This document shows, one piece after another, positions 6,869 to 64,000 of a stretch of DNA of 64,000 nt. The stretch is from NCBI RefSeq assembly GCF_964213995.1, contig NW_027590120.1, forward strand, positions 248,001-312,000, in the 5' to 3' direction. Source of the DNA: Mustelus asterias. Lineage: Eukaryota. Within the stretch, counting starts at the first letter, position 1. Each line of letters starts with the position of its first letter. A program made the position numbers and the translations under genes. The notes under the pieces are model-generated. The model saw nothing but the letters and a program-made list of their open reading frames with translations. It did no database searches and had not been told where the DNA came from.

Positions 6869-7764
6869 TTATTTGCTCATTAATTGAATAATTGATGTAA
6901 GCGGATATTTCACCGCAATTCTTATCTGCTCCCTGAATTTGGATTGGGTCACCACGTAAATAAATGTGTTTGTGCAGGAATTTAAATCCTGCAGCATAAA
7001 TCCAACTATTTGAAATGTAAATTCAGGGATAGTGAGGTAAATTAATCCTTTCACTGTCACATAGAAAAATTTTATAACATACACCGACCAGAGGAGAATG
7101 AAAGCTCCGGATATGCTGAAGAGCAAAATCATTGACTTCTTTCTGCTCTCCATCTCGGGGTCTCTGCGATTCTCTCCCTGACTCTGAGCCCTCAGTCCCT
7201 TCCGGACTCGACTGGTCACCAAAATGTATCTGACTGTCAGCGTGTTAATCAACAGAATTAAACCAAATGGGATCAATGGGGTTAAAACCTTATCAAACCA
7301 GGAAAATCCAATCCAGCCAGGATCAGTCCAATAGATTGCCTTTGTCTGACAACCCCACTGGACATTGCCGATTACCCTTTGAGGTTGATTTGTAAAGTAC
7401 ACGGGGATGTTTTTCACAGAGAGCAGGATGCCGGTTGTTGCCAGAACCACAGCCGCAGTTATCCCAGTGCAATACTTAGTTTTCAGTTTCTGGCAGCGAA
7501 TGGCCACAAATCGATCAAAGGAGAAAGTGACGGTGAACCAGACAGAGCAGTCTGTGGCTGCATTCAGCAGGACAGCTTTAACGCGACACACAGAGGTGAG
7601 GTGCAGGAAATTCAGGGGGAAATAATAACCACTTATCTTGGTGAGAATGGGGTGAAATATGATGAACAGTAGATCCGCCGCTGCCATGGACACCAGGTAG
7701 CGAGTGGTGCAGGTGGAGAGGCCACACTTTCCCCGACTCAAGATCACAATTCCCAGTAAATTAA
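6869..7764 (-). CDS. GPR139/GPR142-like class A GPCR, exon 2 (TM1 end to C-terminus)
   Basis: Polypyrimidine tract plus CTGACAG acceptor ends at 7765. Translation VNLLGIVILSRGKCGLS...MAAADLL...FSFDRFVAI...NSCTNTFIY has 7TM motifs and is open to the stop at 6869-6871. The ORF-track N-terminal extension to 8032 is intronic. Confidence 0.93.
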
Positions 7765-9744
7765 CTGTCAGAGAAAAAGGGACAAGAGCCGGGAAATTAG
7801 TGAGTAAACATTCTCCATGTGTGAACCGACAGTAAGGGGAGGATTTCAGCATCAATCCAATGAACAGTGGTTCCCAGGGTGGCGGTGTTGTTGGAGGAGT
7901 TGTGTGAGAGATTAACATTGCTGACTCGAAAGTAGCCAATGTAACACCGCTGGTTAAGTAGGGACTGGGGGACAGACAGCTCTGAATTACACATCTCTCA
8001 CTTTTTGGAGCAAATCTGCAAATTCTGATCATTAAAATGTTTCAGAGAGATTGCATTTCTCATCTTATCTGTTTTACAGGATTAGTTCAGACTGGACGGG
8101 TTTCCCAATTAGACCCAAAGTGGACAGAGATAGAATCTGAATCCCTCCCTGCACCCAATTATTAGAGCCCGCCCCGGATTTAACACGTCTCAGGGCTGTA
8201 CAGCTGTTGGAGTTGGAAGTCAATTCAGGATTTTTCTATTTAATTTCCCCTCTCCAAATTTCTTCCCCATTCTGACTCTCCCCCGCAGCTTTTCCGCTTC
8301 TAATTTTCAGATTGTGTCCTCTGTCCGTCTCTTTCTTTCCTTTCTTCTCTCCCTCTCTCTGTGCCTTCTCCTTTGCTTCCCTTTCTGTCTCTTCCTAAAC
8401 TCTTCTTCTCTCAGACCAGCTTTATTCCCTCTATCTGGATTTCTCTCTTATCCAGTGCGTTTCCATTCTTCATTCACATTATAACTTTCCCCCATATCTC
8501 CCTATCGCTCTCCAATTGTTCTCTCTCTCCTCCTGTTTCTCCCCATATCTCTCTATCTCACCCCAGTATTGCTCTCTCCATGTTGCTCTCTCCCCATTTC
8601 TGTTCATCTCCCTCCAGAATCTCTCCCTCTCCCTTTCCAGCTTTCTGTGTGGGGCTTTTAAGCACCGCATGATCCCATGGGCAGCACTGTGACCATATCC
8701 AGAGAGGACAAAGTGGCCGGGGGGGGGGAGACATTTCATTCCCCCAGCCTCGCGTTTGGTGTAATCCTCCACCCAGCCACTGAGCGCCATGTGAATTCTG
8801 AGTTTGGATGCATATCCACTCAGTGACAGAAAGAGATGAACTCTCCTCTTTAAACTGGAAAAAAGCTGTGTAAGTTCCTTTGGTTCACTTTTTAAAATGA
8901 GCCTCCCAGTAGTTATTAATTAATAAATTAATCGATTTATTGATCTATTGATTGATTTCTGTAAATAAGGAATATCAGTGGATCAGACTGAGGCTATTCT
9001 CCAGAGACAGGGAGCTGGGCACTGACCCTTAACTGGAGACCTCCAGATAATGTGATTCTTCCCACTCCCCTCATAGCAATATGATTTGTGGTCATGGCAA
9101 TGTGGGTCACAAATATTGCAACGCTCCTTTCAACACAGTGCACATGAAAGAAGGGGGAAGAAGCAGAGATATGGACAGAAATAAGAAGTTAGAAGGAGAG
9201 ATGGAGTAAGGGTGTGGTTGCAAAGACCTGGACAGAGATAAGAACACCCACCTTTACAATGAGTGAGAGCGACAGTGGCAGGAGGAGTAAATAGAAGGAC
9301 GGAGGTGGAAGAGAGGTAGAGGAAGGCCCGAGAGGAGTGGAAAGTCAAAGCAGAGGTGGTGATGGAGGGAGCGCATTTGAGAATGAGAGACAGGATGTGA
9401 GGGTCTCCAGTGTGTAGTCACTAGATGCAGCTCCACTCAAACCCTGTCAGGTAGTCTGACTTGTGGAGAAACATCCTGGGAGGATTTCAAAAGTGTCCTG
9501 AAGTAATCAGCAGCCCCTTCCCAAACTGAAAGAGGGAGTTGAGCAACTTCTAGAGACTGAGAGGGAACAGGGGGTGGGCAGGATGCAGCAGGGCTGGCAT
9601 TTTAATTCAGGTTTAGAAGATTCGCTCTGTGGAACTTTCTCTTTCTCCATTTCAATGTTTCTGTCTGACTGGAAGAAATGGAGGGAAGGAAAGAGTGAGA
9701 GGAAATAATGAGAACCAAGAGAGAGAGAGGTATAGCATGAAAGG

Positions 9745-20340: not shown

Positions 20341-20344
20341 AAAT

Positions 20345-21677: not shown

Positions 21678-21691
21678 TTGGTCTGTTGTTG

Positions 21692-22106: not shown

Positions 22107-22137
<31 letters not shown>

Positions 22138-25915: not shown

Positions 25916-25971
25916 GGAAGTGTGGGGAAGTTTTTTGTTTTCTTTTTTTCTTGCTGGTAATAGCTTCAGGG

Positions 25972-26890: not shown

Positions 26891-26941
26891 TTCGGGGGGG
26901 GGGGAGGGATCCTGAGTAGTGGGGCTGAAAGTGAGGGATGC

Positions 26942-35470: not shown

Positions 35471-35659
35471 CCCACTACTCTTCCATTTGGGCAGCACCAC
35501 AAACAGTGTCTTGTTATTTATTTCATTGGCAGCTGCCCCGGGTGCTCTTGATGCTCCTGCTGCAGCACCTTTGCTCTTAATGATGGGGGAATGAGGCTCT
35601 CAGAGCCCAGAGTAAACATCCAGCAACACCCACAACTCCCGGCTTCCCCCATCTCCAAT

Positions 35660-37270: not shown

Positions 37271-37271
37271 T

Positions 37272-39572
37272 AGGATTTGAATATTCCAGGGTATAAGTGT
37301 TTTAGGCGAGACAGAGGAGGGGCTATGAGAGCAATGCTGGTTAGGGAGCATATTACAGCGGTACAGAGGGTGGACAATTTGGAAGGGTCAGGTAACGAGT
37401 CACTGTGGGTGGAGCTCAGAAACAGGAAGGGCGCAGTCACTATGCTGGGGGTATACTCCGGGCCTCCCAACAGCCCACGGGAAGTTGAAGAACGGATATG
37501 TAAGGAGATTCTGGACAGGTACAGAAAAAATAGGGTTGTTGTAGTGGGAGACTTTAATTTCCCTCACATAGACTGGAAATCGCTTAGGGCTGGGTACCTG
37601 GACGGGGAAGAATTTATAAAATGCGTACAGGAAGGACCTTTGGAATAATATGTTGACAGGGCAATTGAAAGGGGGCTATACTGGACCTAGTCCTGGGGAA
37701 TGAGCCCGGTCAGGTCATCAAAGTTTCAGTGGGGGAACATGTGGCAAATAGTGACCACAATTCTGTAAACGTTAGGATAGTAATGGAAAAAGATGAGTCT
37801 TGTCCTTTGGGTAAGGTGCTGAATAGGGGGAAGGCTAACTAAAGCCGGATTAGGCAGAATTTGGTGGCTGTTGATTGGGAGAGGCAGTTCGAGGATAAAT
37901 CCACAACTGGCGTGTGGGAGTATTTTAAGTAGCAGTTGATAGGACTGCAGGACAAGCATGTGCCTGTAAAGAGGAAGGATAGGAAAGGTAGGAATCGAGA
38001 GCCGTGGATAACCAGTGAAATTGTGGGTCTAATCAAAAAGAAAAAAGAGGCATACATGAGGTCCAGGCAGCTAAAAACAGATGGAGCACTGGAGGAATAC
38101 AGAGAAAGCAGAAAATAACCTAAACAGGGAGATAGAAGGGCAAAAAGGGGTCACGAAATGTCCTTGGCAGACAGGATTAAGGAGAATCCTAAGGCATTTT
38201 ATACATATGTTCTGAACAAGCGGGTTGTTAGGGAAAGAATCGGAACACTCAGGGACAAAGGAGGGGAATTATGCTGAGAAGCAAAGGAAGTAGGTGAGAT
38301 CCTAAACGAATACTTTTCATCAGTATTCACAAAGGAGAGGGACATGTTCACTGGTAGTGTCTCAGAGAGATGTGTTGACCCGTTAGAAAAAATCTCAATT
38401 ACAAGGAAGGAAGTGTTAGGTTCTTTAGGAAACATTAAGACAGACAAATCCCGAGGGCCGGATGGCATCTATCCTGGACTCCGCAGGTAGGCAAGAGATG
38501 AAATTTCTGGGCCTCTGACAGAAATCTTTGTCTCTTTGCTGGACAAAGGTGAGGTCCTAGAGGATTGGAGGATAGCAAATGTTGTCCCGTTATTTAAGAA
38601 GGGTAGGAAGGATAACCCGGACATTTATAGGCAGGTGAGCTTGACGTCGGTGGTAGGGGAATTGTTGGAGAAGATTCTTAGAGATAGGATATATGCGCAT
38701 TTAGAACTGAATAATCTCAGTAGCAATAGACAGCATGGTTTTGTACGAGAGAGGTCATGCCTCGCAAATTTGGTTGAGTTTTTTGAGGAGGTGACAAAAA
38801 CGATTGACGAGGGAAGGGCCGTGGATGTCGTCTACATGGATTTTAGTAAAGCGTTTGACAAGGTCCCTCATGGCAGGCTGGTGCAAAAGGTTAAATCTCA
38901 CGGGATAAAAGGTGAGCTAGCTAGATGGGTGGAGAACTGGCTTAGCCATATAAGACAGAGGGTAACAGTGGAGGGGTCTTTTTCCGGTTGGAGGTCTGTA
39001 ACTTGTGGTGTTCTGCAGGGCTCTGCACTGGGACCTCTGCGGTTTGTGATATATATAAATGATTTGGAGGAGGATGTAGCTGGTGTGATCAGTAAGTTTG
39101 CGGATGACACAAAGATTGCTGGAGTTGCGGATAGTGATGAACATTGTCAGTGAATACAGCAGGATATAGATAGGCTGGAACATTGGGCGGAAAAATGGCA
39201 GATAGAATTTAATCAAGATAAATGCGAAGTGATGCATTTCGGGAGATCTAATGTAAGGGGGAGCTGTACAATAAATGGCTGGACCATCAGGAGTACAGAA
39301 ACACAGAGGGACCTGGGTGTACAAGTCCACAGATCGTTAAAGCTGGCAGCACAGGTGGAGAGGGTGGTGAAGAAGGCATATGACATGCTTACCTTTATTG
39401 GACGGGGCATAGAATATAAAAGTTGGCATATGATGTAGCAGCTGTATAGAACGTTGGTTGGGCCACATTTGGAATACTGCGTCCAGTTCTGGTCGCCACA
39501 CTACCAGAAGGATGTGGAGGCTTTGGAGAGAGTGCAGAGAAGGTTTACCAGGATGTTGCCTGGTATGGAGGG
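37272..39572 (+). mobile_element. decayed CR1 ORF2 (APE plus RT), cut at its 3' end by the ERV 5' LTR
   Basis: GDFNFP, QHGF, DFSKAFDKVPH and FADD motifs with many stops; ends at ...[10 protein letters not shown] directly before TGAAGGGG. Confidence 0.9.
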
Positions 39573-40175
39573 TGAAGGGGGCGACCTTTATTCTTAAGAC
39601 GACTTTTATGCTTAATACCATGGAAATTTTACACGTGTATATCAAATTTATTTTAAAATATTGTCAGCAGCTCACAGCAATGCGATGACTCATGGGCACC
39701 CCTTAATCACTTCAGACAGCCTCATCACTTTAGACTCAAAGCAGGGGAAACATAGACAATAGCTCAACTGATTAGATTATGCAAGAAGCTCAAGACACAA
39801 AGGAAACCCTCCAGAAAGAGATCAGCCTCGGGAAATTGGTTCACAACATCATCAGCCACAGGTCAATTCCACCTATCTGTAATGGCTTTTTAATATCTTG
39901 CTATTGTGCCACTGCTTTGTGTTATTAGCAGGCACTGATCATGTAACAGGTAATACATGATGAGCCTATTCCCGTTTGTTTGGTGCGAAGTTCAAAGCCC
40001 TATAAATTGTAAAGCGCAGAATGTCCAGGGAGAGCAGTTGACGAGCAGCTGTCTCTCCCCAGGCCTGCTGTTTCTGTTATTTTAAACAGAGAATAAAGTT
40101 TGCGTTGCCTTTCTGTACTGTGCTCATGCCTGCCTGTCTTTTATGCTGGTAGGAAGCGAGTAATTTCCCCTTACA
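39573..40175 (+). repeat. ERV 5' LTR
   Basis: Starts TGAAGGGG and ends CCCCTTACA; TATAAA at 40001-40006, AATAAA at 40092-40097; homologous to 47457-47520 plus 49096-49676. Confidence 0.92.
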
Positions 40176-40178
40176 GTT

Positions 40179-40196
40179 TGGTGCCAAAACCCGGGA
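40179..40196 (+). promoter_or_regulatory. primer-binding site complementary to tRNA-Phe
   Basis: TGGTGCCAAAACCCGGGA versus the tRNA-Phe 3' complement TGGTGCCGAAACCCGGGA (1 mismatch). Confidence 0.88.
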
Positions 40197-40499
40197 GGAA
40201 GCGACCACTTGCTGGACCCACGGTGACAAGGATCAAGTGGGTGAGAAGTCAATTTCAGACGTCCAGAGTCCGGAAGGATCCGAGCGCCGTCGGGACCAGG
40301 AGGGGACTTCCTCCAACCTGGATAACAGCTGTAGACTGAGTGGGTACAAAAAGTGCACATACACTGATTGGCTACTGCACAAATTTCACTGATTGAGAAC
40401 TTTGAATTTGTAACACGGTTAGGTACACTGCTGTCGGCTACCTATTGGTCGGCTACCTATTGTGAGAGGGCCTTGTAAGCATCCACAAGAGGTGGACCA

Positions 40500-42102
40500 T
40501 TGTCATGGCAGGCCTTCATATCCCTGCTAACCACCCGGTGCGCCAATAAGGGTGATAAAGAAAAAGGCCTTATTGGATGACCGGGTAGGTTAGGCATACC
40601 TCTGTCAGCCAGGAACGTAGGGAACCGAAAGGGTTGACAGATTCCAGAAGCACTCAAAATAGGAGTGGGGTACGGGCTCAGGGAATGTGAAAGGTACAGA
40701 AAGGCAAGAGAGAGAAAGAGAGACAGAATGCCCCATGAAGGAAAGCCCGAGGAAAGATTACCTCAGGACAGAGATTCTGAAGTAGGTTGCGCATACGTAA
40801 GGGGAGGAAGGGAGCAAGAGGATAGCCTCTCCCTAGAATGGGGGCCAGAAGGATCTCTTATATTTGGGATGCAACAGCAGAAACTAATCAGGAAAATGTG
40901 AAAGGAGGGATGGGACTCCTGTGCGTCCTTCCCACTACAAAGGGAATGGTGGAATAGCCACCAGCGGGACGCTTCTAAAAAGGCTGCAGTAATTTTAGTT
41001 AAACAGTTAATGATAGCGGTCCGTATGAACCTGGTTTACCAGGAAAAGTTAGAGGAAAAGACGAAGAGTATTGCAAGTTTAGAGGCTCGGATCCCAGAAT
41101 TATGAGCCGAAACCCGTAAAATTAGCGCCCCGGAGACCACCACGTCTTCGGTGTACCCCGCACTTCCTAGTGCACCACCCGAGTACGAACCCGGCAGCGT
41201 ACAGAAATGTGCCCCAGTACAGAGGACTGCTAATGGCCAGGATCGCTATAAAGCATTCACTCCCTTAGAAAAGCAGACTATCCGAAAGGAGTTAGGTACT
41301 CTGCGCACCCGAAGTAAAAATACAGAGTTCTGTAGGACTCTTGAGGAGATGTGGGATGTCCACGATCTCCACCCCCGTGATATCCACCAGATAGTCAGAG
41401 CGAAGTGCCTCTCAGATGAATGGAGGACTCTAACCAGCACTGACCCGGAGAACCCTGTCACCTCCACGATCCAGGATGGGGCATGGGCGAACGGAGTCCC
41501 TAACAATGCCTCCAGGGCGATCCAGGGACGCATATAATGCCTTTAAACGTGCAGTCTGTACAGCTCTGGGAAACCCTGCCACCAACTGGGGAACACTCCA
41601 ATCCTGTAGGAAGGAAAAGGGAGAATCCAGCAGCAACTATGCTACTCGCCTGCATGAGGCTTATTATGAGTCGTCCGGGCAGGAAAACCCCGACCCTAAC
41701 GATGCCCCGTGCATCCAAATGTTTTTAGACGGGCTTTCCGCGACACATCAGGAAGTTTTAAAATTCGGAATCGTCACTGCGGACACCTACGATACCGCAG
41801 TCCAGTGGGCACGCCGGGTAGATGCCAGGGCCGGGGCAGGGAGCAACCGAACCGCACCCTGGTCCCGGACAGCCTCTTCAAAAATAGATGCCCCTAACTT
41901 TAAACCAACATCTAAGTGCTTCCGCTGCGGAAGACCCGGGCACATAGCTCGGCACTGTCGATCAGAACCTGGACAAGCTTGTGGGACCTGTGGCAGAACA
42001 GGTCACTCAGCTGAGCAGTGCAGGCTCAAGCCCAAGCCCGAACCCCACTTAGACATGCAGGAAGCCTTCCTGAAATGGCTGAGGGACCAGGGGAAGGCAT
42101 GA
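40500..42102 (+). pseudogene. gag: ERV gag (matrix-like WGPEGSL, PSAPP late-domain-like motif, capsid, two CCHC knuckles)
   Basis: CFRCGRPGHIARHC and CGTCGRTGHSAEQC; broken into several ORFs; 5' limit approximate. Confidence 0.85.
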
Positions 42103-43327
42103 GCACAGGCGGCTCCCATAGACACAGAGGGAGACAAGTTTGTCTACGTGCCTGCCCTCCTGGGGGGCCTGCCTTGCGAAATGTTAGTAGACACAGGAGC
42201 CTCTGTATCCCTGACCGACCTACCCCTTCCCGTGACCAAGGATTACACCCACCTAGTTGGGGTAGGGGGGAACTTGTATTAAGGCTTACAAGAGCAAGAC
42301 GGTCGTCTCAGAGGTAGCAGGGCGACTGGTGCCGGCCCAGTTCTTTGTATTCCAGAACAACGAGGGAACTATGCTAGGAATGGATATTTTAGAGGAATTA
42401 AGCATACTCATAGACCTCAGGAATCATAAGATTCATTGGTCCCACAGTAATGGGAACAAATGTAAGCTCCACCAATCCTGCCAAAGCATCGCAATGATCG
42501 GGAGCGTTAAAATGTTTCAGAGGGACTGGGACACAGAGCCCCAGCCTTTTGGAATAATTTGTAAAGTACTGACAGAAGTATGGGCCAGGGATAAGCAGGA
42601 CACAGGAAAGGTTCCTATGGATCCGGTCCATGTTCCCACCCCAGACCACAAACCACACAGACAGTACCCCATAAAGCCGGAGGCATACCAAGCTGTGTGG
42701 GCTCGTGTACAGGACCTAGAAGGGAGGGGGGTAATACGCTCCACTACTAGTACCACAAACTCCCCAGTATGGCCAGTAGCAAAGCCCGATAAAACCTTCC
42801 GTTTAACAATCGATTATACAGAGCTTAACAAAGTCACCCCAAAAGTACATCCCATAGTGGCAAGCCCCTCCATAATCCTGAATGGATAGGGCCCTAAGTA
42901 CAGCATTTTCACGGTGTTAGACATAGCAAATGGCTTCTGGTCGGTGCCGTTAGACACGGAGTCTCAGGACAAATTTGCATTCACTGTGGGCGAAAAGCAA
43001 TATACCTGGACGAGACTCCCTCAGGGGTTCCACAACAGTCCCGCCATCTTCCACCAGGTTATGAATAGGATATTAGAGGGAGTAGATCTCACCCCCGACC
43101 GCTTCACTGTCCTTCAGTATGTGGACGACATCCTAATTGCCTCAGAAGACAGGCAAGGACATCCTGTAGCCCTGATTGAGGTGCTGCGAGCCTTAGAAAG
43201 GGGCTGGTTGACGATGAACCCCAAAAAGGCCCATACAGGAAGAGACACTGTCATGTACTTAGGACAGGAGATATCCCAGGGTACTCGGACCATGCCTCAC
43301 GAGAGGAGGGTTTCCATCGAGGTCATG

Positions 43328-43560
43328 GTAAGAGTTTTAACAACACCAGGTTAAAGTCCAACAGGTTTATTTGGTAGCAAATACCATTAGCTTTCGGAGC
43401 GCTGGTTCTTCGTCAGATGGAGCAGATATCCACTCCATCTGACGAAGGAGCAGCGCTCCGAAAGCTAATGGCATTTGCTACCAAATAAACCTTTTGGACT
43501 TTAACCTGGTGTTGTTAAAACTCTTACTGTGTTTACCCCAGTCCAACGCTGGCATCTCCA
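43328..43560 (+). mobile_element. palindromic Penelope-derived mini-element inserted in ERV RT
   Basis: Arms 43328-43422 and 43433-43527 are reverse complements; TSD CATC(G/C)AGGTCATG at 43315-43327 and 43561-43573; removal restores RRVSI(E/Q)VMPRPVS. Confidence 0.9.
43434..43471 (+). ncRNA. minimal hammerhead ribozyme motif (mirror copy on minus at about 43384-43421)
   Basis: CCAT-CTGACGA-AGGAGC AGC GCTCC-GAAA-GCTA-ATGG. Confidence 0.8.
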
Positions 43561-45937
43561 CATCCAGGTCATGCCCAGGCCCGTCTCCCTGAGGGGAGTC
43601 CGCAAGGTTTTGGGACCGTTCAACTACAGCCGAACCTTTATTCCCAATTTTGCCACCTTAGCCGAGCCCATACAGCGGCTAGTAAATGGGGGAGGCCCCG
43701 GGGGGCAAACTGATAGAATGGGGACCCGAACAGGAGGAAGCTTATGCAAGGTTAAAACAAGCCCTTATAGCAGTTCCGAGTCTCGGTTTACCTGACCCGA
43801 GGAAGCCCTTCCATATATTTTGTGAGAATGAGGAGGGATTCTATGCCGCAGTAATAGCCCAAACACATGGGGAAACCCTGCGACCCGTAGCTTACTGCTC
43901 CACACAGCAGTCACCAGTGGCAGCCGGCTCGTCCTGCTGCGTTGCAGCAATTGACTGTGCTGCATGGGCAGTTAGTATTAGCGAGCCCACGGTGATGACG
44001 GGGGAAATCATCCTCCACACCAGGCATACCATCGTTGAAATGCTTAACAATAGTAAGCTCAGAGCAGTCTCTAATTAAAGGAGAGCTAAGTGGGAATCAG
44101 TTCTGCTCCCCAAAGGTCGATCAATCACCATAATAAGGGACACAGGAGTAAACCCCGCTGCAGGGATTTTAGCCACTGGCGAATTACATGTGTGCGCTGA
44201 AATCGACCTAGAGGTAGATGCAGCCCCAGTAGAAGAATTCCCCTGAGGACAGGCTGATTGAAGATTCTATGTAGATGGGTCCTGGAAATATATTGACGGT
44301 ACCCCCAAAACAGGGTGGGCAGCAGTTATCGACAAGTTAGAAGTGGAAGCCTCAGGGCGATTAGCCAGCACCCTGTCAGCACAAGTCGCAGAATTAGAGG
44401 CTTTAACACAGGCCCTGACCCTGGCAGAGGGCAAAACCGTGAATGTATATACCGACAGCCAATACGCGTTCGGAGTCATACATGATTATATGGCCGCCTG
44501 GGATCGCAGGGGGCTTGTCACGTCGGGAGGGGACAGGATAAAGCACCAGGAAAGGATTGAAGCTCTATCCCGCGCCTCAAAGCTGCCCAAAGAAGCAGCA
44601 GTAATTAAAGTCAAAGTGCATAGGGAAATAGAAACTCCAGAACAAGCAGGGAACGCTGCAGCTGATAAGGCAGCGCAGCAGGTTTTAAGTGATGCTCTCC
44701 CAACACCTAGTATCACCACAGACAGTGTGGATATAGTCCAGTTACACCGGGACACCCCCGAGGCAGAGAAGCAGGTCTGGGAAGAAAGAGGCGGGAAACC
44801 AGATGCCCAGGGCGCCTGGAGGAAGGAAAGAAAGGTAATAGCCCCAGATTGCATCAGGCGCACCCTGCTGCAGTTAAACCATGGCCGTGATCACACTGGC
44901 AGAAACGCCATGAATCATCTCCTGAGTAGGGATTGGTGGCCGGCGATGGGAAGAGACATAGCTGAATACTGTCAGCGATGTCTCATATGCGCGCAGCACA
45001 ACCGCGGGCTACCCATAAAGATCCGAATGGCTCATCATCCAAGACCCCGGGGGCCTTGGGAAAATCTCCAGATAGATTTCACAGGACCACTTCCCGCATC
45101 AGGGGGCAAGAGATATTGTTTAGTCATAATTGACCTATTCACCCGGTGGGTGGAAGCATTCCCCACCCGGATTGCATTGCTTCCACTGTTGCAGAAATCC
45201 TAGCGAGTGAAGTATTTCCCAGATGGGGGTCCCTTTGCAGATCGATTCCGATCAGGGCACCCACTTCACGGGAACAGTTATGAAAAAGACGTGCGAGTCG
45301 ATGGGAATAAAGCAGAAGTTCCGCATCCCCTACCATCCACAGAGTTCAGGTATGGTCGAGAGGATGAATCGGACCCTGCAGTCCGCTCTCGCAAAGGCTT
45401 GACATGGAAAACACAACAGGAGGACAGAGGTCCTACCCACTGTGCTTATGAAACTCATCCCCTAATCGCGTTACGAACTGATGACCGGGCGGGCCACGCA
45501 ATTGCCCCCAGGCATAATTACCGGAGGGGAAGATTTTGGACCCTTAACAGACAAAATCAGCAGATATGTCTTAGAACTGAGTGAGCAGCTAAAAGAAATG
45601 AGACAGCAGGCGAGAGAACAGCAGGAACTTAAAGATAAAGAAAGGCAGTACCCTGAACAGGCCACAGTGCGAAAAGCAGGATCCCATGTAATGGTTACAT
45701 TGCTACCTGAAAGGCCTGGTCTAGCGCCCCGGTGGTCGGGACGACACCGAGTCCTCATTAGTGGGGATACCTGCGCCTGCGTTGAAATCAGGGGAAAGGG
45801 GCAATGGAAGCATTGGTCACAACTAAAAAGATGCGAGAACAGCAATGATCCAGTAATGCGAGTCTAATAAGAATAATTGTACCTCCAAGCTCATTGTACC
45901 TGTTTTTCAGGCAGGTCACAGCACCGGACAGGAAGAT

Positions 45938-47217
45938 GTATATCGCTGTTTGTTTTTATGCTTTACTGCGTGGCAGGGGAGACTGTCTCTCAAAACGTTA
46001 CCGACGCGAGTTGAATGTAAATACGTACTTGTATATGTCGCGTGTATATGCTAAGAAATGGAATGCATCGAAATGCTGGATATGTACCCACATTCCAAAG
46101 TTGGAATCCCCCTCAGGCCAATCCCTTTGAGAGCCCAAGAGACCGTAGAGTGGGTTATACAGGAAGCAGGCAGGAGCCTCACGCACCACCTTAAATCTAT
46201 ACAGGAGAAGCTACAGTCTGCTGGGTGCAAGGCAGGGACACTCGGTAGATGGCGACTGCTGGGTCATGACCGCACACACCAGTCACCCTCCCTGACCCTG
46301 ACGAACACCACTGGGACAGGGCGCCCAATCAGGCCAGTCTGTATATCCAAAACAGGGACAGACAGGGCCCTCAGAGTAGGGAAGAGCGACTGTAGCCACG
46401 CCTTCAACATTACGCCAGCAGCACCTGATAGTTCCCTTAGAGTCCAGTGTGCACCAAACAGCACGGTGCAGATCCTTCTGCAGCCAGGAATTTTAAACAG
46501 CCCTGCTGCTTATAATGGAACTTACTTTGTCTGCGGTCACAGGGCATACCCTTGGTTCCCCCATGATTGGGCAGGGTCATGCTATCTAGGCTATGCTATT
46601 CCCTACATACACCACATCCCCACCCTAAAGGAGCATCGCCGATGGAAAGAGGGTATCCAGAGGAGGGGGGCCTTTCCGTACCTGGGAATCCTTATTCCTT
46701 CCCTGGGAGGGCTAGGATTACAGATGGGCGAACTCACAGCACGAGTGCAAAAAGAAAATCGCATTCTGGAAGAAGTTGCTAATGCTACTGCGGAGGCTGT
46801 GGCAGAGGTAAACAGCGAGCTAATAGCCCTTAGTACAGTAGCCCTACAGAACCGCCTAGCCTTAGATTATCTCCTTGCGAGTAAGGGAGGTACCTGTGCC
46901 TTAATAGGAACAGAATGCTGTACATATATTCCTGACGCCTCAGAGAACCTTACGAATTTAGCGGAACACATTCACAATGAAGTGACAAACTACATGAGAT
47001 CCCCAACAGCAGTTGGATGGATTGGCTGATGGGGGGCTCATGGGGGGTATTTTTAATGCAGGGAGCCATGGTTCTAATTGGCATAGTCATTGCTTGCTGT
47101 GTGCTGACTGACTGTCTGAGTGCAATTTGTAAAGGTTTTGTGCCCAGGCTAACTGCTGTCGCCGCGTATCGCACCGAGACTCCTTCTCAACCGCAGCTCC
47201 GCGACCACACTGCCTAG
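45938..47217 (+). pseudogene. env: ERV env, gamma-type (CWIC in SU; ISD plus CX6CC in TM), frameshifted
   Basis: Splice acceptor TTTTTCAG at 45910; MYIAVCF...KCWICTHIP; LQNRLALDYLLASKGGTCALIGTECC; membrane anchor in the next frame. Confidence 0.9.
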
Positions 47218-47456
47218 GCAGCGACAAGATTTATTTAAAGACCGCCATGGAGACACCTCCAGCAGACACCCATCATTGGAGCTCGGAGGAGCATGGCTCA
47301 CGCCAGGTCTGTCAACTGAAGGAAACCAAAGACTCTTTGACGAATTATTGAACATCTTTTAAACACTCTGGAATCTCTAAGAAATCATCGAACTCTTCAA
47401 TCAAGATGGTGTGCTCACTGGGGTGCAAGGAGGGTGCCCAGGAGCAAGAGGAGGTG

Positions 47457-49676
47457 TGGAAGGGGACGACTTTGATGCTTAATGTCATGGACATTTTTGC
47501 GCGGTTATATCGAATTCATGATGCCTAATGGCATCTATCCTAGATTGCTCAGAGAGACAAGAGATGCAATTGCTGGGCCTCTGACGGAAATCTTTGTCTC
47601 TTCGTTGGACGCAGGTGAGGTCCCTGAGGATTGGAGGATAGCGAATGTGGTACCGTTATTTAAGAAGGGTAGCAGGGATAACCCGAGTAATTATAGGTCA
47701 GTGAGCTTGACGTACGTGGTAGGGACGTTGTTGGAGAGGAATCTTAGAGACAGGATGTATGCGCATTTAGAACGGAACAATCTCATTAGTGACAGACAGC
47801 ATGGTTTTGTAAGAGGGAGGTCGTGTCTTACAAATTTGGTGGAGTTTTTTGAGGAAGTGGCAAAAATGGTTGACGAAGGAAGGGCCGTGGATGTCGTCTA
47901 TATGGATTTCAGTAAGACATTTGACAAAGTCCTACATGGCAGGTTGGTTAAGAAGGTTAAGGCTCATGGGATACAAGGAGAGGTGGCTAGATGCGTAGAA
48001 AACTGGCTTGGCCACAAGAGACAGAGGGTAGCAGTCGAAGCATCTTTTTCCGGCTGGAGATCTGTGACCAGTGCTGTTCCACAGGGCTCTGTACTGGGAC
48101 CTCTGCTATTTGTGAGATATATAAATGATTTGGAAGAAGGTGTAACTGGTGTTATCAGCAGGTTTGCGGATGACACGAAGATGGCTGGACTTGGGAATAG
48201 CGATGAACATTGTCGGACAATACAGCAGCATATAGATAGGCTGGAAAATTGGGTGGAGAAATGGCAGATGGAATTTAATCCAGATAACTGCGAAGTGATG
48301 CATTTTGGAAGATCTAATGTGGGGGGGGGGGAGTTATACAATAAATGGCAGAGCCATCAAGAGTATAGAAACACAGAGGGACCTAGGTGTGCAAGTCCAC
48401 AAATCCTTGAAGATGGCAGCACAGGTGGAGAAGGTGGTGAAGAAGGCATATGGTATGCTTGCCTTTATAGGATGGGGTATAGAATATAAAAGCTGGCGTC
48501 TGATGTTGCAGCTGTATAGAACGCTGGTTAGGCCACATTTGGAGTACTGCATCCAGTTCTGGTCGCTGCACTACCAGAAGGACGTGGAGGCTTTAGAGAG
48601 AGTGCAGAGAAAGTTTACCAGGATGTTGCCTGGTGTGGAAGGTCTTTGCTATGAGGAGAGATTGGGTAAACTGGGCGTGTTCTCCCTGGAAAAACAGAGA
48701 ATGAGGGGAGACCTAATAGAGGTGTACAAAACTATGAAGGGTATAGATAGGGTGAACAGTGGGAAGTTTTTTCCCAGGTTGGAGGTGACGATTACGAGGC
48801 ATCACGGGCTCAATGTGAGAGGGGCGAGGTAAAACTCAGGTATCAGAGGGACGTTTTTTACACAGAGAGTGATGGGGCCCTGGAATGCACTGCCAAGTAG
48901 GGTGGTGGAGGCAGACACGCTGGCATCGTTTCAGACTTACCTGGAAAGTCACATGAGCAGCCTGGGAATGGAGGGATACAAACGAATGATCCAGTTGGTC
49001 CAAGGAGCGGCACAGGCTTGGAGGGCCGAAGGGCCTGTTTCCTGTGCTGTACTGTTCTTTGTTCTTTGTTGTTCTTTGCCCGGTAATGAATGATGGGAAA
49101 TGTTGTCAGCACCTCACAGCAATACGATGACTCATGGAGAGGCTCCTTGCACCCCCTAATCACTTCAGTCTTAATCACTGTAGACTCCAGGCAGGGAAAA
49201 CATAGACAATAGCTCAACTGATTCGATTATGCAAGAACTTCAAATCACAAAGGGAACCCTCCAGAATGAGATCAGCCCAGGGGAAATATGATCACTTCAT
49301 CATTAGCCACAGATCAACTCCAACTATCTATAATGGCTTTTCAATACTTTGCTTTTGTGTCACTGCTTTGTGTTATTTGTTTTAGTAGTTACTGATCACA
49401 TAACTTGTAGTGAATGACAATAACCCACGTGGGTTCCATTCATGTTATCAGCAACCACTTTGAATGAGCCCATTACCATACATTTGGCGCGAAGTTCAAA
49501 ACCCTATAAATTGTAAAGCGCACAATGGCCACAGAAAGCTGTTGGCTAGCAGCTGTCTTCCCCCAAGCCTGTGGCTTTTTATTTGGACAGGGAATAAAGC
49601 TTGTGTTGCCTGTTTGTACTGTACTCATGTCTGCTTGTCTTTTTTGGTGGTATGAAGCAAGAAACTTCCCCTGACA
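47457..49676 (+). repeat. ERV 3' LTR, interrupted by CR1 at about 47524-49077
   Basis: Follows the purine tract GGAGCAAGAGGAGG; starts TGGAAGGGG and ends CCCCTGACA; TATAAA at about 49505 and AATAAA at about 49593. Confidence 0.9.
47524..49077 (+). mobile_element. 5'-truncated CR1 (RT to 3'UTR) inserted in the 3' LTR
   Basis: PNGIYPRLLRE...FADD...WNALP and a (TGTTCTT)n tail; possible TSD ATGATG at 47518-47523 and 49090-49095. Confidence 0.92.
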
Positions 49677-49848
49677 GTTATGAATATAAAGCAGATGTTT
49701 CTAAAAGTCGGTTTTATGTAGATCTCCAGGCCTCGAAGAAATTCATCAGTTTAAATATATTAGACCTGAGCCTGACTGATGCTGCCGCTTATTACTGCGT
49801 GTTCAGACGCACAATGATAGAAAGAAGGCCCACCTTCGTGCAAAAGCC
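49677..49848 (+). pseudogene. 3' half of a TCR alpha/delta-type V exon with 23-RSS
   Basis: YEYKADVSKSRFYVDLQASKKFISLNILDLSLTDAAAYYCVFR; heptamer CACAATG 49810-49816, 23-nt spacer, nonamer GCAAAAGCC 49840-49848; 5' half absent. Confidence 0.9.
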
Positions 49849-51764: not shown

Positions 51765-51975
51765 CAGTGCAGAAGTAGGCCATTTGGCTCATCAAGTCTG
51801 CACCAACAACAGACTCGTAGGCCCACATATTTACACTGCTAGCCTCCGCATCCCCGGACACTAAGAGGCTATTTAGCGTGGCCAATGCTCCTAACAGACA
51901 CATCTTTGGAGTGTGGGAGGAAACCGGAGCAACAGGACGAAACCCACGCAGCGCAGGGGGAACGTGTCACCTAAA
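51765..51975 (-). mobile_element. decayed V-domain SINE fragment
   Basis: CATCTTTGGAGTGTGGGAGGAAACCGGAGC...AACCCACGCAG matches the SINEs at 19058 and 56229. Confidence 0.75.
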
Positions 51976-57427: not shown

Positions 57428-58092
57428 GTATAATTTAGTGCTTTACTAGAATACGTTCCTGTTAAAATGTATTGGACACTGATTATGTTTATATTGCACA
57501 AGGTTTGCATTCATTAATGCAGCAAGGTACCTTGCATTTATTTATAAAACACTGGATTATTTGTCTGTTTATATTACTCTGCTTTCTGTGTCAACTAACA
57601 CTACACTAGACCATCCCCTCAGCACGCACATGCGTGATACTTTCGATCGAAACGGACCAGCGCTCATGTGTGTTTTTTGTTTCTATCTTTCACGGAGGCA
57701 TTTCTGCTGTTTGTTCTGAAAAGCGTTTCGGAGCATCAATGGAATGATCGTGTCTCAAGGAAACTAAACTCACTGTGGGCACGTGGTCAAAAAGAATTGC
57801 ACGTTAGATTCTGGAATATATTGGCAGCACTGTAGAAATGACATCTATTCAACTTTTCCTCATTTCCTTTTTAATGGGTATAAAGGAATATGTGAAGCCT
57901 TCATTGATGTGAATTGTCAGTCTGTCCCCTATACTATCCAAATATTGAGATGTACTCCTTTCTCTCGGGTACATAATCCAAATGCCTCCTGTAATAGTTA
58001 GATTGCGATTGATTGTCCTCATTTTCGAAGAGGGAGAGATACGCTCGTAATCAACAAAGCGGTTTTCTAATGTTTTAAATGTTATTTTGCAG

Positions 58093-58423
58093 GTAAAATA
58101 CAATGGAATTCGGTTACACAATGTCAACCTAAGTTAAAGGTACCTGAGGGAGCTGATGTGCAATTGAACTCCAGTTCCGTTGATCCGGATTGCTACTAGC
58201 ACGGGCTGTACCCGAACCAGCCGCTCCAGTTTATATTGTATCGGGATAACACCAGGCGCAAGAACACCGTGTTTTCCAAAGGAAAATTCGATGCTCGATA
58301 TTTCATTCAATATCAGGTTTTCTCTTTGTCAAGTTTTGCAAATGGAGACTAAAGACAGCGTCTTCTATTTCTGTGGATTGAGTATCATGGTGCTTCAAAC
58401 CGGCTGCGACCCATGCAAAAACC
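58093..58423 (+). pseudogene. TCR alpha/delta-type V pseudogene
   Basis: Acceptor TTTTGCAG; NSVTQ..VPEGADVQLN(S)...Y*..YPNQPLQFILYRD...GKF...DSVFYFCG; first Cys lost, W>TAG, frameshift; RSS CATGGTG-22nt-GCAAAAACC. Confidence 0.85.
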
Positions 58424-59729
58424 TCGTTAAAACACAACGAAACCGGGGAGTTCAACAAAGGCATCTTCCAACCACGAAAAATAAAATCCCTCGTTTATAT
58501 GATGATTTTAAAAACTAACAGTTTTGTTCTGACAAATTGTTGTCGAGGATTGTAGGCATCACTTCCGCTTAGTGAATAGAGAAACTGAATTGTTCCTTTG
58601 GAAAAGAGAAGGTTCACGTGAATTTAAAATGAAGTGTCAAAATTAATGAAAGGGTTTTAACTAATATATGACGAGGAATTATTTACATGGGCAGCAGGGA
58701 TGACAATGAGAAGATACTGATTAAAGATCATCGGTAAATAGAAATGCTGAGAAATTTATGATTATGTTCAAAGCACGCCTTATGATCTTCAAAACACTGC
58801 CTGAAAGACTGGTGGAGGCATATGCAGTGATAAATAGAAGCAACAGCACGTTGGAAAAAGACCAAAGTAGAGGACAAATAATATGTATCTGATCTGAAGG
58901 AATAGCTCTTGCAGATTAGAAGTGCAAACAACTTAGCCGAATGCTTTCCTTCTGTGTCGTTTTATCCAGTCATTCAATAAATCATATCCAATCCTAACTC
59001 CGGCATAAACAACCGTTCCTGTTTTTGTCTCTCGTTCAAAATCTTAGAAGTGCCTCCAGAATAACATCGTGGAAGCACCTTCAACAGTCACACTGGCGTG
59101 GTACTCAGGATGAGAGCACAACGTATTTATGTGAAGTTCGCGATGGACAATAAATAGTGGCCTTGCTATAATCGCCGATAACTCGCGAAGAGATAGAACA
59201 ACACAAAAATATATGGCACCTTATGAATATCAGCACATAATTTATTCCTCCGTTTGCATAACTCATCCTTTCCTTTTTCATTTGTGTCTTGTTTGCTCTG
59301 CATTTTTCCTCTATTTCAGGACTGTTGCCGCTCTGCCAGTTTCTCTCATTCACCATTTTCATTTCTTTGCATCTATAATAAAGTTCAATGACAGATTACA
59401 TGGCCAAATGTATTCTTTTCTGAACAAGTAGCGTGAGGAGGGAAGGGGCGGGGCTGAATTCCAAACACAAGTGCCGCCCAGAGCAGTGACGCGATCAGAT
59501 GGTGGAACAGGAACTAGAGAGATAGTATCTGACCAGTCAGCACTCTTGTTAACATGCTGCTACCCAGTTATCACATTGCGACTTTATATTGGTAAACAAT
59601 TTCCCGGGACTCTTCCTCTCCTTCTGTTTTAGCTTTCTGTACAACAGTCGCTTAATTTAAAGGATTGCAATAGTAAATATATCTATATCTCCAAACATAC
59701 GATTCAAGGAGATCACTGGCCAAGAAATA

Positions 59730-60204
59730 ATGGGGCTCTTCTGGTTTTGTCATCTGGTTATATTGTGGCTGGTGTTCGGTATGTAAAACAATAACTTCTT
59801 ATCTGCTGGCAGTATTGTGATGTTAATGGACTCAGCAATCAGTGTTGCATTAAACTTTCCTTATATTTTATTCAGGGTTGATTCAAGCAGATTCTGTGGC
59901 GCAACCTCAGATTGAATTGTCTATTACTGAAGGAGACAGAATGAAAATGGACTGCAGCTACACGACAAGTCACAGAAATCCCTTTCTTTACAGAGAGCAC
60001 ACGGACCAGGCTCCGCATTTTATTTTGTACCGAGATTGAAGCAACAGAAGAGACGCAGGTTTTGCCAAGGGAAAATTCGAGGCCAGTCAGACGAATGCAG
60101 AAAATATTTTTTCTTTAACTATTACTCGAGCAGAAATCCAAGATATCGCTGTCTATTTCTGCGTGTTGAGAGACACAGAGGTCATCTATCGCTGTACAAA
60201 AACC
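59730..60204 (+). pseudogene. TCR alpha/delta-type V pseudogene with leader exon
   Basis: Leader 59730-59778 (MGLFWFCHLVILWLVF, G|GT); V exon from 59876 DSVAQP...MDCSYTTS...QAPHFILYRD*...DIAVYFCVLR; conserved Trp deleted; TGA at 60037; RSS CACAGAG-15nt-ACAAAAACC. Confidence 0.92.
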
Positions 60205-61369
60205 TCATCAAACAGAACTGGCACAGGTGGTGTCGCCAGTTCAAGTTCTATCTGCAGTTCCGTGTTAACTGTTACATTTCTCAATTCAATCGCCTCTTAT
60301 TCATGAAACTGTGGATTCAGGTGTCCCTTCAGAGACCTGAGCGCACATTCTAGCTGCCACTTCCACTGCCAGTGGTAATGGAGTCCGAGCGCCTCCGCAG
60401 TGAATTGCTCAGATAAACTACTAAATAGAGGCTCCGTCTGGCCTTTCTGGAGGATCCTAAACATTTCACCGCACTAGCCTCTAAAGCAGGGCAATTTTCC
60501 AAGACATTCAAACGCCAGTCGACAATCTGCAACAGATGACCACGTGACGAGGGATCTTGCTCTGTTCATAGCGACTCTTTCCTCCATTGCAATAGTGACT
60601 GCACTTCAGATTTATGTCATTTTTATTGTGGGCAGACTGGAGGGACTCGGCCGTCCTTCTCTGTCCGTCATGGTTGGCAGCAATAATAAATATTGCAACT
60701 TGCGGGCCTGCACACATCATTTTCGGTTTCCCACTCAACATTCGCCCAAACAAGGCCAATTGCCTGACTGGGCCTTAGGCCCGGCCCTGGGGCGCTAACT
60801 TTTCAAATAACCAAATTGGGGTTTCTGTACCAAATTCCTAGCGTGCAACATTTGACTGGATTCCAAACAGCTTTCAGGTCATTTGTCTCATTAACCTGCT
60901 CAAGCTTCATCCTCCACCTTCTCGTCATCCACCTTTTACACAAGAGCGTTTTCAATGACCTCGTTGCTATTCTTTGAGCAAAGGACAATGAAAGCCACAG
61001 GATGTCAATTATACCAATCAGGAAAAAATTCTGATGAAATATATGATTTCAACAGAAATTTATCTGGCTGTTTGCAAACAAGAGCATTTTGTTCTGACAA
61101 ATGCTTGTTAAGAAATCGTGAAGATGGCAGCATTAAACTCGAGATTTTCAGCTGTTATTGTGCTCCCTGTGTGGGAGTTAGAGAGGGGGCGTTGTAAAGC
61201 GGTGAGAACTGAGTAAAAGATGGAGAACAGCAATCATGGAAATGTTACAGTATATCATAAAGCAATGTAGTGCAATGGAAAACAGTTAGCTTCTGAATGT
61301 GACCGGCATCGACAGGCGCGATGTAAGCGACAAAGAGTTTTTGGGATTATCTACCTGATCTGCTGTTTG

Positions 61370-62288
61370 CAGGTGATAAAATGTTGGGTGGGAGGGTGAG
61401 CTGTGAAGAGGATGCAGAGATGCTTCAGTGTGATTTGGGCAGGCTGAGTGGGCGGGCATGTGCATGGCAGATGCAATATAATGTGGATCAATTTGAGGTT
61501 ATCCACTTTGATAGCAAAAATAGGAAGACAGATTTTTACTTGAATGGGTATAAATTGAAAGAGCTGGATACTCAACGAGACCTTGGACATTGAGCATTAA
61601 TAGCTGAAATTAAGCACGCAGGTACAGCAGGCAGTAAAGAAGGCAAATGGTATGTTGGCTTCATAGCGACAGGATTTGAGTATAGGGATAGGGATGTTTT
61701 GCTGCAATTCTATCGGGCGTTGGCGAGGCCACACCTGGAGTACTGTTTTGGTGTCCTTATCTGAGCAAGGATGTCCTTGTTATCGAGGGAGTACAGCGAA
61801 GGTTTACCAGGCTGATTCCTGTGAAGGCAGGTCTGTTCTAAGAGGAGAGATTAAGTCGGTTACGAATATATTCATTGGAGTTTAGAAGAGTGAGAGGGGA
61901 TCTCATAGAAACTTTGAAACTTCTAACAGGATGAGACAGGATAGATTCAGAAAGAATGTTCCCAATGGTGTGGAATTCCAGAATTAGGAGTCATATTTGA
62001 GGGTAAGGGGTAAACTATTTAGAACTGAAGTGAGGAGAAATGTCTTCATTCGGGGGGAGGTGAATGGGTGGAATTCCCTATCAGCGAATGTATTTGAGGT
62101 CAAAACGTTGTCTGATTTCAAGATGAAATTAGATATAACTCTTGGCGCTAAAGGGAATCAAGGGATGTGGGAGGAAGGGGGTAACCAGGATATTGGATTT
62201 GATGATCAGCTGTGATCAATATGAATGGCGGAGCAGGCTTGAAGGGCCGAATTGCCTACTCCTGCTTCTAGTTTCTATGTTTCTATGT
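61370..62288 (+). mobile_element. CR1 3' fragment
   Basis: WQMQYNV, RPHLEY and FRTEVRRN motifs; (TTTCTATG)n tail. Confidence 0.9.
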
Positions 62289-62416
62289 ATCAATTAACAG
62301 AGGGTAATTGAATTCCCCTCTATGTGTTTGAGTGGCTGACAGCCTCGTTGTGACTGCACCTTTCCGAGATTTTAGACAATCTCACCAGGCAGGAATCGCA
62401 GTTTCAATCAGAAGAC

Positions 62417-62900
62417 AGTTTTTGTACAGCGTAGGTACTGTTTTCTATTACTGTGAGTCCCAGGGCGCAGTAATAAACGGCGGCGTTAGTCGGTTGCAGG
62501 TCCATGATGGTTAATCTTGTGGTGGAGTCTGACAGCTGGAGGTCTGATGCAAAACGATTTCCTAACGCCGAGCCTTTCCATTCCACAACATCACAAGACC
62601 ATCTCCACACAACAAACTGGGGCTCTTTCGTTGCTTGCTGCAAGTACCAATATACATAATACCTTTCTTCTGTAGTGCTATAGATACATTTTATAGTCAC
62701 GGCTTCAGCTTCTTTCACGCTCACTGATGCGATGGACTGAGGAATTGAATCTCCATCACTCTGATTTGTAATGTGTTCAGGAACAAGACAAGATGGGCAT
62801 TAACAAAAAAGTAAAACTTTAATTTGAACGGAACACTGTTGAAATCGTCCTCACCGTCAAAAATTATCCCAAACACAATCCAGACTCTGAATATCTGCAC
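62417..62900 (-). pseudogene. TCR alpha/delta-type V segment: open V exon and good 23-RSS, but GTG start and AA splice acceptor
   Basis: Leader 62900-62855 (GTG QIFRVWIVFGIIFD, G|GTGAG); V exon DSIPQ..VTIKC..YWYLQQ..AAVYYCALG to 62456; heptamer CACAGTA 62455-62449, 23-nt spacer, nonamer ACAAAAACT; acceptor reads TTACAA|ATCAG. Confidence 0.88.
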
Positions 62901-63751
62901 GGCCGCCGCCGAGCCCGATCCTCTCTCCCTTTACAATGTCAAACCCGGAGCAGTTTAAAAACCCACACAGGATTGATTTGGTCAAAATCTCTTCCTCCTG
63001 CAATCATTTGCCGGCAATGACGCAATCCACAAGATACCCGCCAGATATTTAAATCAGATTCAAATGCGGGTCCTGGGTGAGCTGATGTTCTTTCACAGAC
63101 AGGATTAAATATTTCCTCGTGGTCAGTCATTCAGTGAGTCCACTCAAACCAGTAAGTTAACTGTCTTTACTGAGGTCTGTGATTTATTTCCTGGGGCCAC
63201 TGATCTTATTCCACTGATGTGTGATTATATTTAGTGGAGCCACTGATAAAATATAATCACACATCAGAAATCGAATAAGATGATATTAGACTGCATTTTT
63301 GCCTCTCTGTCTTTGTCTAAGGCCCTGTCTCGCTCTCTCTTATTATCTCCCTATTTCTCCCTCTCCCACTTCTATATATTCTTCTTACTTTCTTATTTTC
63401 TATTTTTCTGATCCTAACTCTCAGAGAGTCTTTCTTTAACTCTCTGGCATCCCGCGCGCTACCTCTTTGTGTCTCACGGCCTTTTACTCCCTTTTTTCGC
63501 TGCCGTTCTATCTTCCTGTTTATTTTTCCTTGCCTTTCCCTCGCCCTATTTTGTCAGGAGCTCAATCATTCAGAATGTCTTTTCACATCGATTAACTCTA
63601 TTTTCGACTACATTCACACAGCAATAAACGGTCTCGGTCTGATTCTGCAGCTGCCAGAGGTGAAGGTTCAGATTTCACAAACTGAGCTTCCATCACTCGG
63701 CTGATATGGCATTCCAGTGATAGTTTCCGTAGTTAGTTTGTTAGTTTGTAT

Positions 63752-64000
63752 CACTGCGAATGATCAGCGCACAATAATACACCCCAATGTCACTCAGCTG
63801 TATGTCTGTCAAGGTTAAACTGAAGAAACGATCCAATACTCAGAGCGTTGAAGAAAATCGGCCTCCCACACGCTCAACTTTCTCTGTTTCTCCCTCCGAA
63901 TTCCTTTTGATTAAAAATACCGGCTCTTCCCTCGGTTTTTGTCGGTACTAGAGCAGATCATAGCGGCGACTGGCTATGGAGAATGAATAGGGCAATGAAT
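63752..64000 (-). pseudogene. TCR alpha/delta-type V pseudogene (5' end beyond window)
   Basis: YDLL*YRQKPREEPVFLI...GRFSSTL*...FSLTLTDIQLSDIGVYYCALI; two stops; heptamer CGCAGTG with a decayed nonamer. Confidence 0.88.

Follow-up and report, generated by a model that had tools for sequence, protein, structure and literature searches.

A shark provirus with discordant terminal repeats and unrelated flanks, the probable product of a crossover between two proviruses

Results

Overall finding

The window analysed here, a stretch of 64,000 nucleotides from Mustelus asterias, contains a dead retrovirus copy whose two long terminal repeats (LTRs) fail to match and whose flanks are unrelated, and we consider it probable that this element arose when two proviruses belonging to the same family underwent homologous crossover. 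A single exchange between two elements would explain both the mismatched LTRs and the mismatched flanks most simply, since the LTRs belong to different subfamilies, their divergence is greater than the age of the element permits, and the junction on the right is real.

Anatomy of the element

The layout is that of an endogenous retrovirus, with LTR, primer site, gag, pol (RT, RNase H and integrase), env, polypurine tract and second LTR in order (Table 1). The primer-binding site resembles what we take to be the 3' end of tRNA-Phe; a search of the sequence found no tRNA gene and no Rfam family. Similarity matches point to a candidate Epsilon-like affinity, and the env remnant is 35–46% identical to named env-like proteins of other sharks (Scyliorhinus, Heptranchias, Pristiophorus and Heterodontus), with a narrower range of 40–43% given for the annotated remnant at 46055..47029. 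The same LTR-gag-pol-env order is seen in the shark CmiERV lineages, as far as the available text of PMC4422223 describes them. The multi-copy family contigs run directly from 43314 to 43561, without the 246-nt insertion in pol.

Table 1 Features of the element, its flanks and its context in the window
Feature	Position	Strand	Remarks
Rhodopsin-family GPCR open frame (context)	6869..8041	-	31 kb left of element
CR1-type LINE, left flank	37274..39572	+	3' end missing at LTR; ORF2 residues about 79-846 of 956
Provirus	39573-49676		gag-pol-env, broken
5' LTR, subfamily A	39573..40175	+	603 nt; TG...CA; TATAAA at 40001, AATAAA at 40092
Spacer, then primer-binding site	40176..40196	+	Spacer GTT (3 nt)
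gag	41106..42102	+	Split over two frames; zinc knuckle
pro-pol	42266..45867	+	Stops, frameshifts, insertion; RT, RNase H, integrase
pol insertion	43315..43560	.	246 nt; high-copy short repeat, back-to-back pair
env remnant	46055..47029	+	Pfam TLV_coat
Polypurine tract + TG	47438..47456	+	Precedes 3' LTR
3' LTR, first part	47457..47524	+	
CR1 within 3' LTR	47525..49078	+	About 1.55 kb; 5'-truncated, own 3' tail
3' LTR, main part, subfamily B	49079..49676	+	Ends CA; TATAAA at 49505, AATAAA at 49593
TCR alpha/delta-type V exon, 3' half	49677..49809	+	Open frame to YYC
23-spacer recombination signal	49810..49848	+	CACAATG / GCAAAAGCC
V segment (context)	about 58086-58390	+	
V segment (context)	59869-60168	+	
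V segment with 23-RSS (context)	62760-62455	-	
V segment (context)	about 64000-63760	-	

An earlier, preliminary description of this DNA was silent on three features: the start of the 3' LTR at 47457, behind the polypurine tract, the CR1 that splits this LTR, and the pol insertion. The internal CR1 is 85% identical to the CR1 of the left flank, and similarity to the 5' LTR within the main part begins at 49098. The target duplication around the internal CR1 is ambiguous, either ATGATG on each side or a longer decayed repeat, and was left out of dating.

Two unrelated flanks and a right junction bridged by contigs

The left flank is a CR1 cut in ORF2, its coverage measured on a 956-residue copy from the window, and it stops at the LTR at 39572/39573 (...ATGGAGGG/TG); compared with the inverse of its own end, the start of the 5' LTR lacks one base. 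At 49676/49677 the LTR abuts (CA/GTTATG) framework 3 of a V exon, with a Pfam V-set match, ending in YYC and followed by the recombination signal. The preliminary description had identified the flanks as a CR1 cut in mid-ORF2 and the 3' half of a V exon, and had also claimed that the target-site duplication is missing. Re-alignment bears this out: the exact ends, GGAGGG on the left and GTTATG on the right, share no exact duplication of 4–6 bases, and shifts of up to 4 bases yielded just chance-level or LTR-internal matches. The 4–6 bp duplication in a continuous target that marks a regular single integration is therefore absent, the flanks being CR1 on one side and V on the other.

Also in agreement with the preliminary description, neither the CR1 3' end nor the V 5' half was found in the window, in a search whose V queries came from two other V families and which a decayed half could escape. 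A CR1 piece at 18666-18887 starts near the codon at which the left CR1 breaks off, yet it was rejected as the missing half: identity to the internal CR1 is 73% for this piece and 85% for the cut CR1, and no LTR adjoins the piece. Recombination between the left and the internal CR1 accounts for neither junction and was likewise set aside.

Contigs with 0–1 differences bridge the LTR–V junction in three of four runs and in two of three samples from one study, so that this junction is not an assembly error. Twenty runs with a word share of 0.15 or less were left out of the contig evidence, and sites at which no contig carries the window's letter (e.g. 49435 and 50044-50110) were not scored as differences, the records having been filtered out.

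The fine structure of the right junction is nevertheless irregular. The GTT after CA is identical to the spacer that follows the 5' LTR, a match with a chance of 1 in 64. The last bases are TGACA in the 3' LTR but TTACA in the 5' LTR, and in one related V contig the alignment extends 7 bases into the LTR end (chance about 1%, with the aligner scoring not given). Five listed contigs of related V segments begin matching exactly at 49677. As read from these letters, the right junction is not cleanly integrase-like and appears to lie in a short stretch of similarity between V and the viral end.

LTRs of two subfamilies

Alignment of the 5' LTR with the main part of the 3' LTR gave 84 mismatches in 514 columns plus 8 gaps, and with its first part 14 mismatches in 65 columns. 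The mismatches are spread evenly from the first base to the last, and only 4 of the 84 are of CpG type. The many substitutions and indels already claimed for this pair are thus confirmed, and the block that had been placed near 49380-49465 and described as largely absent from the 5' LTR resolves into 47 nt within 49410-49463, with smaller 3' LTR-only blocks at 49138-49148 and 49376-49381.

In comparison, the interior differs from contigs of a young multi-copy family at 103 of 2837 positions (3.6%). Twice this rate, calculated from six of the seven listed family contig records (the V record being left out), predicts 37 mismatches in 514 columns where 84 are observed (P 3.5e-12). The LTR divergence is consequently more than twice what the interior allows, and is not that of a single integration of this age.

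Among the 17 majority differences listed on the 3' LTR (40 of 85 rows), 13 fall at positions alignable with the 5' LTR, and at 12 of these the contig majority has the 5' LTR letter; the other 4 fall in the block absent from the 5' LTR. This block is present in 7–17 other contigs and missing from others. Type A LTR contigs are found at about 10–11 copies and interior contigs at 5–7, a ratio of 2:1 that indicates one young family. Because contigs of the same species carry each LTR type in several copies, the two LTRs are, as judged from contig copies and block presence rather than from a tree, members of two different subfamilies, each multi-copy in the species.

The V segment and its neighbourhood

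The V-set fold with YYC and the 23-spacer signal identify the right flank as a TCR alpha/delta V segment. It is one of about 8–10 related cassettes (7–9 relatives), and as a coding unit it is dead. Four further V segments lie at 58086..64000 in both orientations; for the one at 62760-62455, TCR alpha and delta chains are among the best matches, and antibody fragments also score high. A word-based protein search returned no match with the V half and one match, to an unnamed entry, with the intact neighbour V. The preliminary description had the element probably joining a GPCR region to the V array, which the data do not show: the GPCR lies 31 kb away across repeats. Literature on GPR139 in sharks yielded no title on gene clusters, and the available text of PMC12227049 has no passage on GPCRs.

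Discussion

Under the crossover model, a type A provirus would have sat in a CR1 while a type B provirus abutted a V exon, and the exchange, probably in env or the 3' untranslated part (46.5–47.5 kb), would have produced a hybrid with A on its left side and B on its right. What the hybrid lacks, namely the end of the CR1 and the V leader with the 5' half, would then have been deleted, or shifted to a reciprocal product by inversion or translocation. The model is supported by the coincidence of both breaks with LTR termini; TG and CA are present at the element's ends, but the start one base short and the right end in the V-like patch speak against the model. As far as 46466 the interior closely resembles the type A family, in a comparison with type A interiors alone; with these as the sole comparison, the crossover point was not located within the element. 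We note that discordant LTRs alone are no proof of crossover, since LTR conversion without flank exchange is common (PMC6407205, available text).

Ectopic recombination between two proviruses, one in a CR1 and one in a V gene, had been put forward in the preliminary description. The exchange itself gains from the differing subfamilies, the excess divergence and the real right junction, while a second provirus regularly integrated in a V gene is uncertain. Of the proposed deletion or relocation of DNA at the edge of a V cluster, neither an event of any given size nor the cluster edge is established.

The main rival is one faulty integration followed by LTR conversion, which we regard as possible though doubtful; it draws on the resemblance between V and the viral end at the right junction. 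Integrase would have joined the left end to the CR1, host repair would have attached the right end, untrimmed and with the GTT spacer still following CA, to the V look-alike patch while rearranging the DNA between, and one LTR would later have been overwritten by the other subfamily. The spacer-like GTT, the TGACA end and the V contig reaching 7 bases into the LTR are as expected, and a shark-type V homolog (P0028, one of five compared) carries Asp at the position that is also Asp in the junction frame. Deletions and inversions are described for HIV integrations (PMC5041404) and LTR conversion is frequent (PMC6407205), in the text available for each. However, two rare events are required, the five other V contigs have no alignment into the five bases before 49677, and the similarity between V and viral end was spotted post hoc. 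Furthermore, since the differences between the LTRs are spread evenly over their whole length, conversion must have replaced an entire LTR from a diverged donor. An unlikely extension has the untrimmed end of a one-ended integration captured by the V-exon patch, so that a single germline infection would both have rearranged the TCR alpha/delta field of the shark and have placed an LTR promoter immediately ahead of an orphan 23-RSS, still usable by RAG as a decoy or deleting element.

An assembly misjoin, at the left junction or within the element, that fused two genuine loci each bearing a normal provirus is improbable. Several near-identical family copies exist, and among the contigs listed for 37000-52000, dominated by CR1, short repeat and satellite, none bridges the left junction or spans the element, a lack that we did not count as evidence. 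The misassembly check proposed earlier is thus answered on the right, where contigs bridge the junction, and not on the left. Against a misjoin, the right junction is real, the element is distinguishable by its 3.6% distance from the young family and by two private insertions, and residual single-copy depth of non-family letters at 42126, 44237 and 47109 suggests that the interior is present in the runs. Least probable is one old provirus whose LTRs drifted with age and whose flank was lost by an unrelated deletion ending at the LTR tip: small irregularities at both tips and the repeat-rich region agree with it, but the LTR divergence is too great for the interior, a random deletion is unlikely to stop at an LTR tip, and the contig evidence largely refutes drift, the insertion blocks being common to other copies and hence not decay.

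A crossover between two proviruses would leave a genomic scar of a known kind, the mechanism being known already from primates. HERV-K(HML-2) recombinant proviruses have been reported (Hughes and Coffin 2001 and 2005), and the gibbon SERV-K/MER11 provirus 10_73510506-gib has discordant LTRs, mismatched duplications and a reciprocal locus (PMC11379458). As far as these sources were available, the shark element is like the gibbon SERV-K and HERV-K cases in its LTRs of different groups, lack of a matching duplication and unrelated flanks. It is unlike gibbon SERV-K, for which the reciprocal locus is known, in being a shark class I-type element with a Phe-like primer site and a TCR V exon as one flank. 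In canids, the available text of PMC6407205 reports 6 aberrant LTR placements among 8 dog proviruses of CfERV-Fc1(a); there too the LTRs of one provirus fail to pair, but the duplications are all intact and matching, whereas the shark element has none and its flanks are unrelated. The aberrant HIV integrations that arise in cultured cells when integrase is mutant or a drug is present, and that bring deletions, duplications and inversions of host DNA (PMC5041404, available text), resemble it in the absence of a regular duplication, in rearranged host DNA and in a possible host-repair junction at one end; by themselves they do not yield LTRs of two subfamilies.

Our search of the open-access literature found no paper on ERV-mediated rearrangement in a TCR locus. 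If the crossover is true, the element is a concrete case of proviruses reshaping a shark antigen-receptor V field, a dated-looking scar with one V segment lost, and it would help to account for the mixed orientations of shark V segments and their position among other genes. Any effect on function is probably small, since the lost V has 7–9 relatives. The LTR divergence is 0.185, against 0.024–0.033 in two complete CmiERVs (PMC4422223, available text); if the crossover is true, an age read from this LTR pair would be overestimated several-fold.

Discordant LTRs and unrelated flanks

The proviral genes are all broken (Table), and the DNA is shark-like, with env relatives from four named shark genera and shark metagenomes among the runs sharing its words. 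We take the primer site to resemble the 3' end of tRNA-Phe.

Features of the provirus and its surroundings in window coordinates
Feature	Position	Description
GPCR frame	6869-8041	31 kb from provirus; CR1 nests and satellite between
CR1 pieces	9878-16007	all minus strand
CR1 nest	18600-31800, 37274-49078	nearly all plus strand
CR1 ORF2	26891-29761	within nest; open, 956 residues; long upstream frame
Mixed satellite	35645-37282	19-24 nt units; in many contigs of the species
Provirus	39573 (TG)-49676 (CA)	gag-pol-env layout
5' LTR		603 nt, then GTT and 18-nt primer site
Tandem repeat	39581-39616	~18 nt, near 5' LTR start; single in 3' LTR
gag		zinc knuckle; several frames, broken
pro-pol		RT, RNase H, integrase domains; several frames, broken
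pol insertion	43315-43560	246 nt, palindromic
env		several frames, broken
Polypurine tract		directly ahead of 3' LTR
3' LTR	start 47457	interrupted by 5'-truncated CR1 of 1.55 kb
ATG frame	49652-49809	ATG within last 25 bases of 3' LTR, in frame with V half: MKQETSPD-SYEYKADV...
V exon and downstream flank	49677-50300	~8-10x single-locus depth (at exon)
V segments	58086-64000	four, two plus and two minus; open frame and good 23-spacer signal only at 62760-62455

Alignment of the LTR pair reveals 84 differences in 514 columns (K2P 0.185) and 8 gaps, evenly along the length, bearing out the many substitutions and indels of the preliminary description. The longest interior contigs belong to a young family whose 5-7 copies are nearly identical; the window interior departs from them at 103 of 2837 bases (3.6%, from six records of X21, a sequencing run of the species). 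Decay since insertion can be no more than 3.6%, so two LTRs that started out identical would be expected to show about 37 differences in 514 columns; of the 84 observed, 80 lie outside CpG.

The 3' LTR shows at least 17 majority differences from other contigs (40 of 85 rows). Thirteen can be aligned to the 5' LTR, which has the contigs' letter at 12; the exception is 49170. The block near 49380-49465 described as largely missing from the 5' LTR is a 47-nt block present in 7-17 other contigs, while some contigs, judged by their loose ends, lack both it and an 11-nt block, as does the 5' LTR. Both LTR states are therefore multi-copy, and the depth of LTR to interior is about 2:1 for type A. The 5' LTR and interior group with this subfamily, and the 3' LTR belongs to a second, type B. 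It is established that the two LTRs of a provirus leave reverse transcription identical (PMC6407205), so exchange between elements happened after or apart from normal insertion.

As previously described, the left flank is a CR1 cut within ORF2 and the right flank a V exon (a TCR alpha/delta-type variable segment) reduced to its 3' half. The CR1 stops at ORF2 residue 846 of 956, and the V half has a YYC motif and a 23-spacer signal. We likewise find no target-site duplication at the element's ends, and neither the CR1 remainder nor the V 5' half within the window, where the V queries came from other V families.

Origin of the arrangement

We favor, with some confidence, a homologous crossover between two proviruses. 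If a type A provirus had sat in the CR1 and a type B element had adjoined the V exon, a single crossover would yield both discordant LTRs and unrelated flanks. The interior stays with type A as far as 46466 or beyond, and the 3' LTR already differs at its beginning (14 of the first 65), which probably places the switch at 46.5-47.5 kb, judged against type A interiors alone. Deletion, inversion and translocation are all compatible and are not discriminated by the data. Of the proposed ectopic recombination joining a GPCR region to a V array, the crossover would account for LTRs and flanks; host-repair features at the right junction weigh against the crossover.

Proviruses marking ectopic recombination were reportedly treated by Hughes and Coffin in 2001 and 2005. 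Such recombination is known to be marked by discordant LTRs together with mismatched duplications, and in a gibbon case the reciprocal locus is included (PMC11379458). The window provirus and the gibbon hybrid share discordant LTRs and the lack of a matching duplication; the window provirus is very probably a hybrid of an already known type. Shark ERVs have been described (PMC4422223, in part); no paper on ERV-mediated rearrangement in a TCR locus was found in the open-access literature.

A rather unlikely alternative to the crossover is one-ended faulty integration finished by microhomology, plus LTR conversion. Left untrimmed, the viral end would read CA-GTT, and the three bases after the 3' LTR's CA match the GTT spacer behind the 5' LTR (chance 1 in 64), so such an event fits. 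The last five bases are TGACA in the 3' LTR and TTACA in the 5' LTR. A related V contig, which extends 1 kb upstream, matches the LTR end over 7 bases (about 1% by chance, aligner scoring unspecified), though five others end their match at 49677; and one of five V homologs compared has Asp at the position matching the junction. These give the right junction features of a host-repair join. The 5' LTR start, one base shorter than the inverse of its own end, also counts against the crossover. Deletions and inversions accompany such events in HIV (PMC5041404). Faulty integration requires a second event for the LTRs, but LTR conversion is common in dog proviruses, with 6 aberrant placements among 8 (PMC6407205).

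An assembly misjoin is improbable. Among 24 runs listed by a read-run search, four (one organism, three samples, one study) share 28-55% of sampled words, and their contigs were compared over 49082-50300. In three of the four runs, which cover two of the three samples, contigs span the LTR-V junction; they show 0, 1 and 0 differences and reach 36, 63 and 36 bases into the LTR. The runs therefore come from the window's species, and assembly error is excluded at the right junction; as they may include the source animal, they are silent on how widespread the junction is. For the left junction and interior continuity, no bridging contig stands among the matches listed, which repeats dominate. At three positions in the interior, leftover depth at single-copy level suggests that the runs contain the letters of this copy. 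The hybrid provirus is very probably real. An old element with a chance deletion is the least credible reading and highly improbable.

Surroundings of the provirus

The GPCR frame is separated from the element by 31 kb of CR1 nests and satellite. G+C is 0.48 left of the element versus 0.42 right, a step that fits two kinds of region but is no proof of them. Not all TCR alpha/delta-type V exons of sharks are in the main array; some are found between IgH clusters (PMC12227049). The surroundings may therefore be old, and the event may have been local. Its depth places the flanking V in a duplicated cassette family. The left-flank CR1 starts directly behind the satellite.

The pol insertion, missing from family contigs, is a high-copy short repeat in two back-to-back copies (100-nt arms, 94% complementary, no loop) with CATC at each side; the pair makes up a single insert. 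The in-frame ATG ahead of the V half has no leader and is probably due to chance.
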